From: a phage
Length of the DNA: 64,000 nt
Sequence record: NC_104726.1
Strand: one strand, 5' to 3'
Shown: positions 25,885-56,857 of the stretch, in pieces
How the letters are laid out: every line of letters begins with the position of its first letter
Position numbering within the stretch: the first letter of the stretch is position 1
Position numbers and translations under genes: made by a program
The notes under the pieces: model-generated
What the model saw: the letters and a program-made list of their open reading frames with translations, nothing else
Databases searched by the model: none
What the model was told of the DNA's origin: nothing

Positions 25885-25919
25885 ACAGTATAACAAAATA
25901 GCCCTCGTGTTAGAGGGCT
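25885..25919 (-). terminator. candidate terminator between terL and portal
   Basis: hairpin AGCCCTC-TAACAC-GAGGGCT followed by U-rich tract on minus strand. Confidence 0.4.
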
Positions 25920-25969
25920 AGTATCTCCGATTACTCTATTCTACCACATCTAATTAAGATTGGCAACAC

Positions 25970-26774
25970 TTAGATAAAACGCTTGAACATAGAAGGTGAT
26001 GAGATTGATGGAATCACACAAGGAAGTGCTACCTCCTCTTTCTCCAGGAAATTAATCGCAGAAGCTACACAGTCTGCCCAGTCGTCTTTTCTGTTAAATG
26101 TTGATCTTTCCCCGTTGAATTTTTCAAGTTCAGTCAGAAATGCTTCCAGAGTATCAGGATGGAAACTGGATTTTACAATTCTCACCATTCCTTGTTGGGC
26201 AAGATTGGCAAAAGGTGAGAACCTTGTCAGTTTAGATTTGTTGGAAGGCATTGGGTCTTCTTCAACCCTAAACCCTTCGGCGAGCAGGGATCTGGAGGAG
26301 GTTAAGAACTCACTCTTACCTGCCTGCCCTGGGTCCACAGAGAAGACGATTATGCAATCATCACCATCGAACTGCGCCTGTTTCCTGATGATCACATCTC
26401 GTTCACCAGCCTTTTTACAGAACTTGCCTTCCAATCCTGTGGAATACCTCCCGTCATCCACGTTCTCAGGACAATAATCACCTGACAGGTAATAAAAGCC
26501 GTCGCTATCTTTACTTACCTTAATACTGGCAGTAAAGTCAGGAAATTTATTACCGGAAGTTCTCTCGGTTCCTGCCTTATCCCATGCCCTGCAAGATACT
26601 GATCCAAGGGGTACTCTATCGGCATCACGAAGGAAAGATCTTTGAAAATAGTTTGCACCCTCAGGCTTTGCAAACCAGTTACCATGGAGAAGCTGAGCTT
26701 TTTCCAGCTCTGGTAGACCTTCGAGGAAAGCAAGGTATTCTGGGTTGTCTCTCAAACAGACAGGATTATCGAAT
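25970..26774 (-). CDS. terL: terminase large subunit, exon 3 (nuclease domain)
   Basis: continues FDNPVCLRDNPEYLAFLEGLPELEKAQLLHGNW...; frame open upstream of annotated start to 26774; joins exon 2 in phase. Confidence 0.7.
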
Positions 26775-27753
26775 CCTTATATTCAAAGGTGGTCGCAACA
26801 CCACCCTCCGCACCATTACGTGCCGCTGCATGTTACCATGCAGAGTAGACTATATCACCACCCATCTCAGGGTGCTTCGCTTTTCGAGCGCCATAGGCTT
26901 GCGCCCTACTCCCTCTCGGGATAGTCGTTGAACTACATTACCAATCGTAATTGTTTGAAATATAGGTGTAAGTCTTACGGTCTTTTATTCCTTTAACAAC
27001 ACTAAAACTTACGCCCCACTTCTTAGCTATTTTATTTACACACAAAACCCTATCACTAAGATCCTCGCAGATACCTATTATCTTGTGCTCACTTATCCTA
27101 TTAGAGGTTGGCACTTTTCTAAAGTTAAACTCTTTAGAAATATCTGGGTATACTGAGCCATTCTTTATACCACTTACAAGTGGTTGATTGACACCAAACA
27201 TTTCACAAATGTCTTTTACCCTTGCACCTTGCTCTAACAGTCTACATATTTCAAGAGCAGTGGCATCATCTAGGGACCTGTATTTATTGACATAGTCCTT
27301 TTTAAGTCCCATTTCATGAGCATGATGTGTGTTTTCCTCAGGTGTTGTCCACTCAAGGTTCCATGCGGCGTTATTCAACTTATTGCCATCAAGGTGATTT
27401 ACTTGAGTTTTCACGCTGGGATTATCATTATCAACAAAAGTCATAGCAATCACTCTGTGAACGAGCACTTGGAACTTTTTACCGTCCTCGCACAAAGTTA
27501 CCATAGCATAGCCAGTCTTTTTCTGCACATTAGGATGGAGGAATTTATTAGAATACAGACTGTAAATTCTGCCATCGTATGTAGCACAATAATGATTGTA
27601 GCCTAAAAAGCCTAAATTTTTCATTTCAAACATCTCCCTACTACAGGTTCGGAAGGGTAATTATAGCTGCTGATTGTCCGTTTAGCAATCGGATTTTCCA
27701 GCAATTAACGAAGTTATTCGACGTGCATTTCTGCACGAAGCCACTATCATTTA
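26775..27753 (-). mobile_element. group I intron 2 in terL, carrying HNH homing endonuclease ORF
   Basis: interrupts terL between ...SFSFIGATI and FDNPVCL...; coding strand carries R-like GTTCAACGACTA (26933-26922) and S-like GATATAGTC; exon ends in U, intron ends in G; boundaries +/- ~15 nt. Confidence 0.6.
26938..27633 (-). CDS. intron-encoded HNH homing endonuclease
   Basis: 231 aa; HNH motif HRVIAMTFVDNDNPSVKTQVNHLDGNKLNNAAWNLEW; lies wholly inside terL intron 2. Confidence 0.75.
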   Translation of the reverse strand: MFEMKNLGFLGYNHYCATYDGRIYSLYSNKFLHPNVQKKTGYAMVTLCEDGKKFQVLVHRVIAMTFVDNDNPSVKTQVNHLDGNKLNNAAWNLEWTTPEENTHHAHEMGLKKDYVNKYRSLDDATALEICRLLEQGARVKDICEMFGVNQPLVSGIKNGSVYPDISKEFNFRKVPTSNRISEHKIIGICEDLSDRVLCVNKIAKKWGVSFSVVKGIKDRKTYTYISNNYDW

Positions 27754-28073
27754 ATGGTTGCGCCTATGAACGAGAATGACAACGGTCTTGGCTTGATCTC
27801 TACGCCAAGTCCGTTAACCGTGGTGTATTTCTCTATCAACTCTTCTTTAGAATCTCCCCATATAAATTCACCGTCGCGTCGGATAAAATATCTTTTCTTA
27901 CCGCATTTCTCCGGATCTGGATACCCTTCATCGTCCAACCACCATCTAACCAGTTTGGCAAGCATGTGTTCTGAATCTGGGTTACAGCTGATAACCATTC
28001 TTGATGGATACTTTGACTGAGATCGCAGACGAGACATCAGATAGTCTATCTGCTCCCATTCGAATTGTGTCGT
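27754..28073 (-). CDS. terL: terminase large subunit, exon 2
   Basis: TTQFEWEQIDYLMSRLRSQSKYPSRMVISCNPD...; in-frame continuation upstream of the annotated Met. Confidence 0.65.
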
Positions 28074-28390
28074 CTATGTTCGGGCAAGGTCGCTAGTCTT
28101 GCCCCGCCATTTTTCAGGCAGCTGCATGTCTCCATGCAGACCAGACTATATCTTATAAGCGACAACAACCGCTTACCCTCCCGTTTCGAATCGCTTGATT
28201 CTACGTCTTTCGACTAGTCGTTGAACGTTCATCCTCTCGGATGCTTCGCTGCGGATTATCTAAATTAACACACTGTTACCATACCTTCGATCTCTCTTCG
28301 AAGCCTCTATCATGTTACCATGACAGGTTGGTGGTGTCAATAATAAAGATTTCCCCGCAATTAGGGAGGTTTTACGAGAGCTACAAATTA
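28074..28390 (-). mobile_element. group I intron 1 in terL (no ORF)
   Basis: separates Walker-B exon (…MVCFDEG) from exon 2; coding strand has GTTCAACGACTAG (28225-28213) and AAGATATAGTCTGG (28154-28141); begins after U, ends with G; shares CTGCATG-N5-CATGCAG hairpin with intron 2. Confidence 0.6.
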
Positions 28391-28816
28391 ACCCTCATCG
28401 AAGCAAACCATGGTGTACTCAAGCCCTTGATGGTTAAGCTTATCTTGTACATACTCCATGTGGCAGTATTTTACAACAGCTCCCTTTTTGCTTCTATCCC
28501 ACTTACCAGTGTTAGGATCAAACCGTGGAAAAATGAACTTATGATCCTTCTCTCTGAACTTTGGCTTAATGTTTTCAGGCAGATCACTATAAATAGCTAC
28601 TGCTTTAGGCCATAGTCCACCCTCACCCTCCAACTGTGGAGTTGTTCTTCGGAACATAACCACAGAGCTGTGGGGGTCATCAATAATTTTAAGCGGCATC
28701 AACTGCAAAAGGAACGACTTGCCAGACCCTGCGGCACCGCCGATTACCAAAATATCTGCATCGTTTTCGAGGATCATCTTCTGCTTTTCAGAACACGGTC
28801 CGTAAATCTTAGACAT
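28391..28816 (-). CDS. terL: terminase large subunit, exon 1 (ATPase N-terminus)
   Basis: Walker A GGAAGSGKS and Walker B MVCFDE; ORF track 28388..28816 ends at an in-frame stop that is the first codon of the intron. Confidence 0.75.
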
Positions 28817-29103
28817 TAACCTCTCTCCTTTGGAAACAGTGTTCTAATATAGTCTTGCAAAATGATCAATTTAGCTCTATCATTGCTACAAGACAGATTA
28901 TTATCCCTCATAATGCCAGAATTCACCGCATCTGGCGCACCTTTCTTTAAAGGTATAGCTTTAGCAGGTGGTTTCATGGCACCTTCCGGGGGTTTAACAA
29001 TCAACCTTCCTACATCTGGAGGGTCAATCTTGTATTCTTTCTCAACACTGGTTGCACACCCACATAATAACAAGCACGCAATAAACAGTGTAGCAACTCT
29101 CAT
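28816..29103 (-). CDS. o-spanin (Rz1-like outer-membrane lipoprotein)
   Basis: 95 aa; signal peptide with lipobox LLLCGC; Pro-rich; downstream of i-spanin. Confidence 0.6.
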   Translation of the reverse strand: MRVATLFIACLLLCGCATSVEKEYKIDPPDVGRLIVKPPEGAMKPPAKAIPLKKGAPDAVNSGIMRDNNLSCSNDRAKLIILQDYIRTLFPKERG

Positions 29104-29919: not shown

Positions 29920-29996
29920 TGGTCTCCACGGAGTGATTCGAACACTCGACCTCCTGATCCCAAATCAGGCGCTCTACCAAGCTGAGCTACGCGGAG
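29920..29996 (-). tRNA. tRNA-Pro (anticodon UGG)
   Basis: manual fold: acceptor CTCCGCG/CGTGGAG, D arm GCTC..GAGC, anticodon loop TTTGGGA, T loop TTCGAAT, encoded CCA. Confidence 0.75.
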
Positions 29997-30007
29997 TATT
30001 TACTATT

Positions 30008-30082
30008 TGGTGGCCCTGGGTGGAATTGAACCACCGTCTGGCGATTATGAGTCGCTTGCTTGAACCTTCCAGCTACAGGGCC
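30008..30082 (-). tRNA. tRNA-Met (anticodon CAU; Met/Ile2 type undetermined)
   Basis: manual fold: acceptor GGCCCTG/CAGGGCC, anticodon loop CTCATAA, T arm GGTGG-TTCAATT-CCACC, encoded CCA. Confidence 0.7.
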
Positions 30083-30083
30083 T

Positions 30084-30159
30084 TGGTGCTGATGGCAGGA
30101 CTTTAACCTACAACCTATTGATTACAAATCAATTGCACTACCGATTTTGCTACATCAGC
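30084..30159 (-). tRNA. tRNA-Thr (anticodon UGU)
   Basis: manual fold: acceptor GCTGATG/CATCAGC, anticodon arm ATTGA-TTTGTAA-TCAAT, encoded CCA. Confidence 0.7.
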
Positions 30160-30164
30160 AAAAA

Positions 30165-30263
30165 GGTGCTAGGTGATGGAATCGAACCACCTATGTATTC
30201 AACGACTACCTCGTCTATTTTCAGGATTAAAAATCCTCGCCCTTGCCAAAGGGCTTACCTAGC
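30165..30263 (-). tRNA. atypical tRNA-Lys (anticodon UUU) with ~29-nt extra hairpin in variable region
   Basis: acceptor GCTAGGT/ACCTAGC, D arm GCCC-TTTGGCAA-GGGC, anticodon arm AGGA-TTTTTAA-TCCT, T arm GGTGG-TTCGATT-CCATC; 99 nt, extra segment AAAATAGACGAGGTAGTCGTTGAATACAT between anticodon and T arms. Confidence 0.5.
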
Positions 30264-30361
30264 TCAGTATGTTGACCATGTTGCTAGTCGGCGATGACGA
30301 CTGTAACATTTGATAATCCGGTTCTGCTTCCGACTTTCGCTTAATTACAAGGTCAACAATG

Positions 30362-30452
30362 TGGCGGAGAGTAATGGAATCGAACCATCATCGAGTCATC
30401 CTCAACGGGACGGTTTTCAAGACCGCTTGAGCACCATTGCTCCCTACCCTCC
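30362..30452 (-). tRNA. tRNA-Ser (anticodon UGA), type II
   Basis: acceptor GGAGGGT/ACTCTCC, anticodon arm GCGGT-CTTGAAA-ACCGT, long variable arm, encoded CCA. Confidence 0.7.
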
Positions 30453-30566
30453 TTTATAAATAATACTGATAATGACACTGATTTTCGAGCAGTTAGTGAC
30501 TAGTATAAACGACGATAAATATCAATGCCATTATCTGTATTATTTATGCATCTAAAAATATAAATT

Positions 30567-30653
30567 TGGTGGGGAGTGGTGGAGTCGAACCACCCGAGTC
30601 GCAATGACAATAGATTTACAGTCTACACCGCTACCTCTACGGGATAACTCCCC
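30567..30653 (-). tRNA. tRNA-Tyr (anticodon GUA), type II
   Basis: acceptor GGGGAGT/ACTCCCC, anticodon arm GTAGA-CTGTAAA-TCTAT, long variable arm, T arm GGTGG-TTCGACT-CCACC, encoded CCA. Confidence 0.65.
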
Positions 30654-30657
30654 AATT

Positions 30658-30732
30658 TGGCACCCCGTACTGGACTCGAACCAGTGTCAACGGCTTAGAA
30701 GGCCGCTGCTTTATCCACTAAGCTAACAGGGC
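30658..30732 (-). tRNA. tRNA-Arg (anticodon UCU)
   Basis: acceptor GCCCTGT/ACGGGGT (two G-U pairs), D arm GCTT..AAGC, anticodon arm GCGGC-CTTCTAA-GCCGT, encoded CCA. Confidence 0.65.
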
Positions 30733-54201: not shown

Positions 54202-54480
54202 ATGAGCTGCGAAAAATCTTTTTTCATCATCATTTACGGTAAGGATAACTGCCCACATTGTGTCAGAGCAAAAGAATTTGCAATCAGCAAAGGTCTGCCT
54301 TTTGTATATAAGACACTTGGCGAGGGCTACACAAAAGAAGAGCTTATTGAGAAGTGTAGTCCAATCGTCCCCCGAACGTTGCCGCAGATCTTCTTAGAAA
54401 GCGATCTTGACAGTATCCATATAGGCGGTGCCGACGATTTCATCTCTTTTGTTAAGAATGGTTTTGGAGAGAAAAAGTGA
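54202..54480 (+). CDS. glutaredoxin-like protein (NrdH/Grx)
   Basis: 92 aa; CPHC redox motif near N-terminus; between nrdB and nrdD. Confidence 0.65.
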   Translation: MSCEKSFFIIIYGKDNCPHCVRAKEFAISKGLPFVYKTLGEGYTKEELIEKCSPIVPRTLPQIFLESDLDSIHIGGADDFISFVKNGFGEKK

Positions 54481-55337
54481 AAGTTGTAAAACGGGACGGT
54501 AGAGAAGAGTTCTATAACGGAATTAAGGTGATCAAGGCGGCAGAGTCCGCCTTACTTGAGTCTGGACATACTGAAGAAGAAGCTTACCGGATCGCTTGTG
54601 CGGTTAATGAAGTTGTTGCTAACAATCTGCCAACCGACCAGTGCACGATCTCTGTAAAAAATATCCATATCCTTGTTGAAGATGCTCTTATGGATATGGG
54701 TTTAAAATGTGCAGCCAGAGAATACATCCAGTATAGACAGACAAGAGATAATAACAGAGAGGCAGGTGGAAAACTGCTTGCAGATATTAGTGGCTTCTTG
54801 GATCGAACTTGTGATGAATTTACAAAAGAAAACGCAAATAAGCCTACTAATCATGTACACACTCATCGCGACCTGCTTGCAGGTATTCTTAGCAAACACC
54901 TTGCATCAACACAGATCCTGCCAGACCGTGTCTCCGAAGAGCACAATAAAGGCTTCATCCATGTGCATGATCTTGACTACTTGATCAGTCCGTTAACAAA
55001 CTGTTGCTTGGTAAATTATCCAGATATGTTGGAAAACGGATTCAACATTGGTAACGCCCATGTCAGTAAGCCGAAGTCAATAGGGGTTGCAACAACAATC
55101 CTTAGCCAAATCTCTAGTGCGGTAGCTAGTGCTCAATATGGTGGTCAGACTATGAGCCATATTGATCATTATCTGGCACAGTATGCTGAAGCGACCTATG
55201 AGAAGAACCTTAAATTTTGCCAGGAACATTGGTTGCCAGATGCTGAAACTGTTGCAATGCAAATGACAGATAAAGACGTGTTTGACAGCATGCAGACGTT
55301 GCTTTATCAGATCAACACACTAACCTCGGTAAACGGT
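54477..55337 (+). CDS. nrdD: anaerobic ribonucleotide reductase, exon 1
   Basis: GTG start overlapping grx stop; ATP-cone; ...FIHVHDLDY...TNCCLVNY...; ends ...QINTLTSVNG, colinear with T4 NrdD ...VNTLFSSNG. Confidence 0.75.
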
Positions 55338-55594
55338 TAACAAACTGGCCGTTTTAAAACTCTGCTAACCTTAGTATGAGGGGTCAGCTGATCGCTGGCT
55401 AACGGGGAACGCTAAGGCGAAAGCTATGCCAATCCCGTGACTAGCTTCACAAGGAGTGAGGCGGTTGTAACGACTAACCTTTTGGTGTAGGGATTATGGA
55501 AGATTCCGAAACGCAGGGGTCTGATTAAGAATCACACGGTGTGATTTCAGGCAAGAGATAGTCTGGCCTTGTGGAAACATAAGGGTGGGGACCG
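55338..55594 (+). mobile_element. group I intron in nrdD (no ORF)
   Basis: 257 nt with stops in all frames between exon 1 (...SVNG) and exon 2 (QTPFITL...); exon ends in U, intron ends in G; R-like GTTGTAACGACTAA and S-like AAGAGATAGTCTGG. Confidence 0.6.
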
Positions 55595-56857
55595 CAAACC
55601 CCTTTTATCACATTAAGTTTAGGACTGGATACCTCGGTCTTTGGTAGAATGATTACCAAAAATTACTTGAAAGTCCACAAAATGGGTCTTGGTGAAGAAC
55701 GGATCACACCTGTGTTCCCTAAAGTGCTGTTCTTCCTAGAAGAGGGTGTCAACATGAACCCTGAGGATCCTAACTATGATTTGAAACGATTAGCTCTGGA
55801 ATGCTGTGCAGAACGTATCTACCCTGACTTCGTATCTGTACCACTAAATAGAAAAGTGACAGGCTCGACAGATGGCAAAGTAACGAGCATGGGTTGCCGG
55901 AGTTTTCTTAGCAAATACAGTGACTTGGAAACAGGCGAGGAGAAATATCTTGGCAGATTTAACTTAGGCGTTGTTAGCCTTAACCTACCAATGATTGCGG
56001 CAAAAGCTAAGACGGAAGGTGTTGATTTCTTTGCAGTTCTTGACGAATACTTGGATCTTGCATACGAGGCTCACCTTGTAAGGGTTAACCGTCTAAAAGG
56101 AACAAAGGCAGGGCAGAACCCCATCATGTGGTGTGAAGGAGCTCTTGCTCGCCTGGATCCTGAAGAGAGTATTGATAAACTCTTCTATGACGGGTACGCT
56201 TCCATCAGCATTGGGTATATTGGTGTGTATGAAACCTGTCAGATTTTGGGTAGAGAGGGTGACAAGGCTTTAGCTCTTGGAATCCTTCAGCACATGAGAG
56301 ATGCTTGTGAGCGATACAAGAAGGAAAGTAGACTAGCGTTTAGCTTGTACGGCACTCCTTCTGAGAGTCTATGCTATAAAGCTGCAACCTGTCTGGATCG
56401 TGAATATCCGGAAGTGTTGAAGCACGAGCATGAATATCTCACCAACAGTTTCCATCAGCCAGTATGGATCAATAGCTCTCCTTTTGATAAGTGGGAGTAT
56501 GAGGAAGGTTTTGCTATGATCTCCTCCGGTGGCAACATCGGATACGTAGAGACACCTAACCTGAAAAACAACCTTGATGCTTTAGAGGCTCTTGTTGACT
56601 TCGGGTATAAACACATTATGTATTTTGGTATTAACCAACCTGTGGATAAATGTCTCAAGTGTGGTTTCTCTGGTGAGTTCAGTGCAACAGCTAAAGGGTT
56701 CTGCTGCCCTGCGTGCGGATGCCACGATGAACAATATATCTCAGTGATCCGAAGAGTGTCTGGATACCTTTCCAGTCCTAACTCCCGTCCTTACAATAAA
56801 GGTAAGCAAGCGGAAGTTATCGAGCGAGTTAAGCACTACGGAAGTTGTGGTTGCTGA
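55595..56857 (+). CDS. nrdD: anaerobic ribonucleotide reductase, exon 2
   Basis: QTPFITLSLGLDTS... colinear with T4 NrdD QTPFVTITFGTGTD; C-terminal zinc site CLKCGF...CPACGC and glycyl-radical motif RVSGYL. Confidence 0.75.
   Translation, partial: QTPFITLSLGLDTSVFGRMITKNYLKVHKMGLGEERITPVFPKVLFFLEEGVNMNPEDPNYDLKRLALECCAERIYPDFVSVPLNRKVTGSTDGKVTSMGCRSFLSKYSDLETGEEKYLGRFNLGVVSLNLPMIAAKAKTEGVDFFAVLDEYLDLAYEAHLVRVNRLKGTKAGQNPIMWCEGALARLDPEESIDKLFYDGYASISIGYIGVYETCQILGREGDKALALGILQHMRDACERYKKESRLAFSLYGTPSESLCYKAATCLDREYPEVLKHEHEYLTNSFHQPVWINSSPFDKWEYEEGFAMISSGGNIGYVETPNLKNNLDALEALVDFGYKHIMYFGINQPVDKCLKCGFSGEFSATAKGFCCPACGCHDEQYISVIRRVSGYLSSPNSRPYNKGKQAEVIERVKHYGSCGC

Follow-up and report, generated by a model that had tools for sequence, protein, structure and literature searches.

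The two introns of an rV5-like phage terL gene are very probably independent, separately mobile members of a widespread T4-like group I class

Phage genes with multiple group I introns are exemplified by orf142 and nrdE of Twort, and the introns of phage T4 were reportedly placed in one structural family by Shub and colleagues in 1988. Multi-intron essential phage genes, some of them with HNH ORFs, include bnrdE/F of SPbeta and the DNA polymerase gene of CB7, which has two HNH introns (PMC7344957). The closest described counterpart of the locus analyzed here is the terL locus of Escherichia phage V5/rV5 (DQ832317), in whose record the "terminase large subunit, ORF64ABC" is a join of three pieces and an "HNH homing endonuclease, ORF65" is annotated within that join. 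The split terL of rV5 and its HNH were published and annotated in 2013 (Kropinski et al. 2013, Virol J 10:76, PMC3606486), and in the part of that paper available to us we found no analysis of the relation between the two terL introns. The present work compares these two introns with each other, with their alleles in sister phages and with introns of other phage genes.

The DNA under study, hereafter the window, is a stretch of 64,000 nucleotides from sequence record NC_104726.1. The 3-kb region 25900-28900 shares 97-98% identity from end to end with Escherichia phage V5/rV5 and with many other Vequintavirus genomes, and on this identity the window belongs to an rV5-like Vequintavirus. Its terL locus is the same as that of DQ832317: the whole 3-kb region aligns in one piece with 97.4% identity, and no structural difference was observed, intron 1 being one base longer in the window. 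Joins of terL are also annotated in several sister genomes, and the three-exon terL with an intron-encoded HNH is already known. The gene lies on the minus strand and is made of three exons and two group I introns. The junctions were set by comparison with relatives that miss one intron, namely PDX (no intron 1) and LL12 and WalterGehring (no intron 2). The features are as follows:

28816..28391, minus strand: terL exon 1, from the ORF list, Pfam Terminase_6N; boundary from the intron-less PDX, FFH2 and I29 alleles
28390..28071, minus strand: intron 1, 320 nt, ORF-less, assigned to group I (IA2, T4-like)
28070..27754, minus strand: terL exon 2, 317 nt
27753..26775, minus strand: intron 2, 979 nt, assigned to group I (IA2), with an ORF in the P6 loop; boundaries from the intron-less LL12, FFH2 and I29 alleles
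27633..26938, minus strand: putative HNH homing endonuclease ORF, 231 aa, I-HmuI family, with two C-terminal HTH-like repeats; intron nt 121-816
26774..25970, minus strand: terL exon 3, nuclease domain, Pfam Terminase_6C

Exon 1 encodes amino acids 1-142, from Walker A to Walker B, and ends in ...VCFDEG; its final base is a T, which enters the U.G pair of P1. The joined exons yield an uninterrupted 515-aa TerL that matches Terminase_6N as well as Terminase_6C and is collinear with intron-less alleles, and excision of intron 1 leaves an exon length equal to that of these alleles. Positions 26775 and 28390, between which an earlier reading of the letters alone (the sequence-only reading) had placed the two introns, coincide precisely with the 3'-terminal base of intron 2 and the 5'-terminal base of intron 1 as fixed from intron-less alleles. 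An alternative 3' splice site of intron 1, located 3 nt upstream (after ...CAUAG), was rejected: it adds a codon relative to the intron-less alleles, and the G in question is an A in V5 and others.

Intron 1 scored 84 bits on Rfam RF00028 (gathering score 50). Intron 2 of the window gave no match at the Rfam gathering threshold, owing to its ORF, and an E-value search recovered two half-matches of 31.2 and 24.4 bits, split by the ORF; the ORF-less intron 2 allele of phage RudolfGeigy scored 95.6 bits on the same model. In P1 the exon sequence GAGGGU pairs with AGCUCUC of intron 1, and CCAU(UA) pairs with UAGUGG of intron 2; both pairings place a U.G at the 5' splice site, and the terminal base of both introns is a G. 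The two RF00028 scores of 84 and 95.6 bits, the U.G and terminal G, and the restored reading frame together argue for group I membership. By minimum free energy, both 3' domains fold into P7, P7.1, P7.2, P8, P9, P9.1 and P9.2, which is the T4-like IA2 layout, marked by extra hairpins P7.1 and P7.2 that stand between P7 and P3' and by a 3' extension of P9, P9.1 and P9.2. Furthermore, both introns can be aligned, column by column, with the td intron of T4 type and other phage introns, and the nrdB 3' domain has the same elements. On these scores, folds and alignments, both introns are assigned to subgroup IA2 (T4 td/nrdB-like). The elements used below are:

28266..28345, minus strand: intron 1 P5 extension (~80 nt) with two hairpins that have GUAA loops; inserted when aligned to the Rfam model
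28215..28226, minus strand: R element of intron 1, GUUCAACGACUA (P6'/P7)
28122..28152, minus strand: S element (GAUAUAGUC) and P9 hairpin CUGCAUGG-AG-ACAUGCAG of intron 1; hairpin itself 28122-28139
26922..26933, minus strand: R element of intron 2, GUUCAACGACUA; begins at intron nt 821, 4 nt past the HNH stop codon
26826..26856, minus strand: S element and P9 hairpin CUGCAUGG-UA-ACAUGCAG of intron 2; hairpin itself 26826-26843

The sequence-only reading held that the two introns have R and S core elements in common and a near-identical hairpin, and both statements were borne out. The 12-nt R element, GTTCAACGACTA, is identical in the two introns (28215-28226 and 26922-26933), the hairpin CUGCAUGG-NN-ACAUGCAG occurs in both (28122-28139 and 26826-26843; chance expectation in the window, 0.02), and the block from S to P9 is identical at 30 of 35 bases. 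The same reading took the introns to be paralogs, one lineage at two sites of the gene with one copy ORF-less; that is, one intron would have been copied to a second site in terL, and the copy at site 1 would have lost, or never had, the HNH ORF. Beyond the R element and the S-P9 block, such an origin is favored by the UAA with which both introns start, by the common 3' architecture (P7.1, P7.2, P8, P9, P9.1, P9.2), and by a stretch in the P5 extension of intron 1 that looks like the 5' end of intron 2. However, each shared block is matched equally well or better in introns of other genes and other phages.

The likeness of the cores does exceed chance, and this part of the reading holds: local alignment of intron 1 with intron 2 scored 45, compared with 17.8 ± 2.3 for shuffled sequences (reached in 0 of 500). 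The similarity is limited to Q/P4, the R element and the S-P9 block. When one intron was run against the other with blastn at default settings (word 11), no HSP resulted, and a small word size and the Smith-Waterman algorithm were needed to detect it. The specific kinship does not hold. When R and S-P9 were masked, the 3' domains scored 14, relative to 14.9 ± 2.4 for shuffled sequences, 368 of 500 of which reached that score; a lack of similarity beyond the R/S consensus had been named beforehand as speaking against paralogy, and this is essentially what was observed.

Comparison with other introns led to the same picture. Under one scoring scheme, intron 2 ranked 14th of 15 comparators for the 3' domain of intron 1, and intron 1 ranked 13th of 15 for that of intron 2, although these 15 had been chosen as hits to either intron and form a biased set. 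The bias was avoided by harvesting 123 unique virome introns with exact copies of the R and S elements that introns 1 and 2 share: 22 of them are nearer to intron 1 than intron 2 is, and 45 are nearer to intron 2 than intron 1 is. All phage and virome 3' domains (138 in total) were then placed in a joint alignment of 156 columns, a short alignment that does not settle the deeper branching order. Introns 1 and 2 differ by a p-distance of 0.42, the median of all pairs being 0.45; intron 2 is the 32nd nearest of 137 neighbors to intron 1, intron 1 is the 60th nearest to intron 2, and in 0 of 2000 column bootstraps were they nearest neighbors. Judged by these distances, the two terL introns are demonstrably not each other's closest relatives.

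The nearest relative of intron 1 is the phiKZ-type intron (p-distance 0.27), which matches it across the entire 3' domain (E 9e-21; 130 of 156 aligned bases identical). The T4-type td intron matches at 81% over its 3' end, and the introns of Jarilo pol, T4-type td and nrdB are all nearer to intron 1 than intron 2 is. Intron 2 is nearest to the terL intron of Pseudoalteromonas phage J2-1 (MF988720), with a p-distance of 0.26 and 125 of 151 aligned bases identical (E 3e-19). It also matches the introns of CB7/phiTE nrdA, SPbeta nrdE, PhAPEC7 and the phi92-like nrdD (85%), and those of CB7/phiTE nrdA, PhAPEC7, SPbeta nrdE and nieznany nrdD are nearer to it than intron 1 is. The P9 hairpin follows the same pattern. 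It is found exactly in T4-type td and nrdB, the phiKZ-type intron, the PVP-SE1 helicase intron, nieznany nrdD, CB7 nrdA and PhAPEC7, and with one or two changes in Yepe2, 10AMN and J2-1. Among the 123 R/S-matched virome introns the stem is exact in 6 and has at most two mismatches in 15. The combination of this rare P9 stem with the exact R element in both introns points to the same sub-clade as T4 td/nrdB; on its distribution, the hairpin puts both introns into the td/nrdB-like sub-family and does not link them to each other. A distant common ancestor of introns 1 and 2, in the broad sense, is certain. What the two have in common in R, S and P9 is conserved at the level of the class and is no evidence of a duplication within the gene. 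In the same window, nrdD is split at ~55.3-55.6 kb by a further group I intron candidate, the third, which scores below threshold; it has no special similarity to either terL intron.

The two introns are also unlike in their periphery, which speaks against a copying from one terL site to the other: intron 1 has no P2 and carries the ~80-nt P5 extension, whereas the P2 of intron 2 comprises 6 bp and its P5 is short. Intron 1 was found in 52 phage records. In HdK5, WalterGehring and other sister phages it contains a 196-aa ORF of the Endonuclease VII family (PF02945, 76 bits), which replaces the P8 loop. The ORF associated with intron 1 is thus an EndoVII-type gene in P8 and not an HNH gene in P6, and the ORF-less intron 1 is not the same element minus its HNH, contrary to what had been proposed.

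The P5 extension is missing from the nearest relative of intron 1, the phiKZ-type intron, and in the phage collection searched it is confined to the 52 Vequintavirus records. One stretch of it resembles the 5' end of intron 2 at 17 of 18 positions (reached in 0 of 500 shuffles), a match that was found post hoc and involves simple GNRA hairpins; it could reflect some sequence exchange between the introns. Likewise, the first ~52 nt of intron 2 (IGS, P2 and P3) are 85% identical to the DNA-polymerase intron of WalterGehring, which stands behind the same 5'-exon ending, ACCAT, while in its 3' domain intron 2 is like the introns of J2-1 and CB7; its ORF-less and ORF-bearing alleles are not alike in the P6 region. 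From these observations it can be asked whether the introns are partly chimeric, with modules swapped in a Vequintavirus pool and with the P5 extension, which also resembles the P9 loop of intron 2, as a captured intron-2-like piece. The shortness and post hoc nature of the P5 match count against this, and no donor of the extension, as a twintron or captured fragment, was found in the phage collection. We consider such a mosaic origin possible but doubtful.

The 231-aa ORF of intron 2 (26938-27633) had been described as ending 4 nt before the R element and as placed like I-TevI in the T4 td intron. The distance is exact, the stop codon ending at intron nt 816 and R beginning at nt 821, and comparison with the td intron of RB3 confirmed the placement in the P6 loop, abutting R. 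The ORF product matched Pfam HNH_3 (PF13392) with 28.0 bits (cut-off 24.8) and gave additional HTH hits. It aligned with I-HmuI (PDB 1U3E) over residues 11-154 (E 3e-11), including the NH...N...N motif. Compared at full length, the protein shares 35% identity with the HNH of the J2-1 intron (E 2e-43), and it is 40% identical to the HNH of the DNA-polymerase intron of the sister phage WalterGehring. Among close relatives the element is polymorphic in presence and absence, ORF-less intron 2 alleles and intron-less alleles both being found. By its domain and its residence in an apparently mobile intron, the ORF product is classed as an I-HmuI-type HNH homing endonuclease.

The location of this gene inside terL, together with the precedent of HNH proteins that aid terminases (Kala et al. 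2014, cited in PMC7344957), could instead suggest a packaging accessory of the HK97 gp74 type. That idea was rejected on intron location, patchy presence and I-HmuI kinship: the HNH is encoded in an intron, within its P6 loop; roughly 85% of closely related phages do not have it; intron 2 alleles without the ORF exist; HNH_3 and the HTH repeats place it in the I-HmuI family; and it has homologues in introns of DNA polymerase and of J2-1 terL. A packaging role is, in our estimate, hardly credible, and a homing endonuclease is the preferred assignment.

Occupancy of the two sites was surveyed in 50 full-length terL genes, chosen as a spread sample of Vequintavirus, with the following result:

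No intron: 27 of 50 genomes
Intron 1 with EndoVII only: 9 of 50 genomes
ORF-less intron 1 only: 7 of 50 genomes
Both introns, both ORF-less: 3 of 50 genomes
ORF-less intron 2 only: 2 of 50 genomes
Intron 1 plus intron 2 with HNH (the V5/window arrangement): 1 of 50 genomes
Both introns, both with ORFs: 1 of 50 genomes

Genomes with only intron 2 and its HNH also exist, e.g., PDX. The sequence-only reading had named such a survey of related phages as a check, and the outcome speaks against paralogy: the two sites are filled independently, and about half of the genomes are intron-less. Intron 1 was present in 5 of the 7 genomes with intron 2, compared with 16 of the 43 without it, and these counts are small. 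The wobble bases around each site covary with the intron. Site 1 reads GGT|ACA (the bar marking the insertion point) when the intron is present and GG(A/C) ACG when it is absent, and site 2 reads ACC AT|A and ACA AT(A/T), respectively. This covariation is as would be expected from P1 pairing and from co-conversion during homing. With independent occupancy added to the neighbor ranks, the chance-level masked domains and the differing architectures, the copying of one intron to a second terL site is very improbable, and we regard that reading as largely refuted.

It is very probable, from the comparisons above, that the terL gene carries two independent, separately mobile IA2 introns of the T4 td/nrdB-like class that is widespread in phage genes. 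In this model, each intron would fold after transcription and excise itself, with the 5' site after the U.G of P1 and with ωG as the last base, and splicing would give a 515-aa TerL collinear with what the intron-less alleles of about half of the sister phages encode. Self-splicing is suggested by the intact cores, the precise collinearity and the essentiality of terL. Intron 2 would be a composite of an intron and an I-HmuI-type HNH encoded in the P6 loop. In a mixed infection the enzyme would cut or nick an intron-less terL near codon 247, and repair from the intron-bearing allele would copy in intron 2 together with adjacent exon bases (homing); the HNH family membership and the presence/absence pattern point to this route. 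Intron 1 of the window would be the ORF-less form of an element whose P8 holds an EndoVII-type endonuclease in about half of the phages that carry it. It would persist by splicing, and it would spread only with an endonuclease supplied in trans (the EndoVII type of sister alleles) or by co-conversion with intron 2, 317 bp away.

A further reading is that intron 2 with its HNH is a lineage caught in the act of moving between ectopic sites. It would account for a 5'-module relative and a 40%-identical HNH in the DNA polymerase gene of a sister phage, behind ACCAU, for a 3'-domain relative and a 35%-identical HNH in a Pseudoalteromonas phage, where they occupy a third site in terL, and for the ~80-nt P5 extension of intron 1, perhaps a fragment captured from such an intron. 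We hold this to be unlikely; were it true, the gene pool would record IGS-target-guided transposition (reverse splicing) and module exchange between introns.

The terL gene of the window is an ordinary, if neat, case of mobile introns in an essential phage gene, and the importance of the locus beyond housekeeping is small. The useful outputs are a negative answer on paralogous introns, the exact splice junctions, and a small survey of independent site polymorphism. The Vequintaviruses, about half of the relatives being intron-less, would be suited to mixed-infection homing experiments. For annotation, the locus is a reminder that split terL ORFs in such phages are intron-interrupted genes and not pseudogenes.

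Among known systems, the terL intron of J2-1 resembles the 3' domain of intron 2 most closely, with a homologous HNH over its full length and a stop codon placed alike in P6. It differs in its site, at ~codon 127 of the window TerL, which lies upstream of the intron 1 site by 14 codons and of the intron 2 site by ~120, and in its host protein, which is only 36% identical to the window TerL. The intron-encoded I-HmuI, the HNH nicking enzyme of the SPO1 DNA polymerase intron (1U3E), shares with the window HNH the N-terminal DNA-binding sheet and the HNH motif; the window protein is longer (231 versus 174 aa) and carries two HTH-like C-terminal repeats. The IA2 introns of T4 td, nrdB and sunY (nrdD) have the core and 3' architecture seen here: R, P7.1/P7.2, S, the P9 hairpin CUGCAUGG-NN-ACAUGCAG, P9.1/P9.2 and a 3' end of the form ...GAACAUAnnG. 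In T4 td the I-TevI ORF lies in P6 and abuts R, as does the window HNH. The T4 introns, in contrast, reside in nucleotide-metabolism genes and not in a terminase gene, and their endonucleases are the GIY-YIG I-TevI/II, whereas those of the terL introns are an I-HmuI-type HNH and an EndoVII type.

The synonymous exon bases beside both terL insertion sites covary with intron presence among the relatives L003, L005 and L141-L144. The flanks concerned are:

28388-28394 (minus strand), intron 1 site flank, GGT↓ACA vs GG(A/C) ACG
27750-27757 (minus strand), intron 2 site flank, ACC AT↓A vs ACA AT(A/T)

The covarying flanks fit co-conversion and the demands of P1 pairing.

The intron 2 allele of phage RudolfGeigy (L004) is ORF-less, and its comparison with the ORF-bearing allele of the window delimits the following segment:

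26934-27665, P6 arm difference between the intron 2 alleles

The P6 arm measures 21 nt in RudolfGeigy and 732 nt in the window. The entire arm has been replaced, and the difference between the alleles is not a clean insertion. The P6 3′ strand of intron 2 (GGUAAUGUAG) includes the stop codon of the HNH gene.

Intron 1 carries an extension of its own:

28266-28345 (minus strand), P5 extension of ∼80 nt, intron 1 nt ∼46-125

In the phage collection this extension was observed only in intron 1 of Vequintavirus terL (52 records), and it was not found in the closest relative of intron 1, a phiKZ-type intron. Nucleotides 74-92 of intron 1, in the P5 extension, match the 5′-terminal 18 nt of intron 2 at 17 of 18 positions, a score that none of 500 shuffles reached, and the P9 stem-loop of intron 2, CATGGTAACATG, is identical to nt 69-80 of intron 1, also in the extension. 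The P5 extension could be an intron fragment that was captured, or the likeness may have arisen by chance.

A further candidate was detected outside terL:

55328-55584 (plus strand), third group I intron candidate, ORF-less, RF00028 29.8 bits

The match to RF00028, the Rfam group I intron family, falls short of the gathering score, with E 5e-5 in a search of 3 kb. The candidate sits between the ORFs 54477..55340 and 55649..56857, and the anaerobic ribonucleotide reductase gene nrdD appears to be split by it. It is not particularly similar to intron 1 or to intron 2 of terL.

At least six tRNA genes are clustered at 29923-30732 (minus strand), directly upstream of the spanin/terL operon, and two more tRNA-like matches are sub-threshold. 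Separately, 18 "Campylobacter phage" records of the phage collection (GenBank MG065635-MG065690) match rV5-like coliphage terL at 96-98% identity, with the introns as part of the match; probably the host or organism is mislabelled, or there was contamination of the preparations.

Two introns of other phages share features with intron 2:

L010 locus ∼710-1665, intron-2-like intron with HNH (Pseudoalteromonas phage J2-1, MF988720)
L145 locus ∼1794-2635, DNA polymerase intron, 842 nt (Escherichia phage WalterGehring, MZ501111, 71295-74939)

The J2-1 intron occupies a third terL position. On the TerL of the window this corresponds to about codon 127, which lies 14 codons upstream of where intron 1 is inserted. 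The J2-1 intron encodes an HNH protein homologous to the window HNH over the full length (35% identity), and its P1/IGS (GAAGGGU / AGCUCUU) is similar to that of intron 1. The intron of the sister phage WalterGehring is absent from the window. Over its first ∼52 nt this intron shares 85% identity with the 5′ end of intron 2, and the exon before it likewise ends in ACCAT. Its HNH is 40% identical to the window HNH, but its 3′ domain is unrelated. Given this combination, the WalterGehring intron looks like a mosaic or a partial paralogue.
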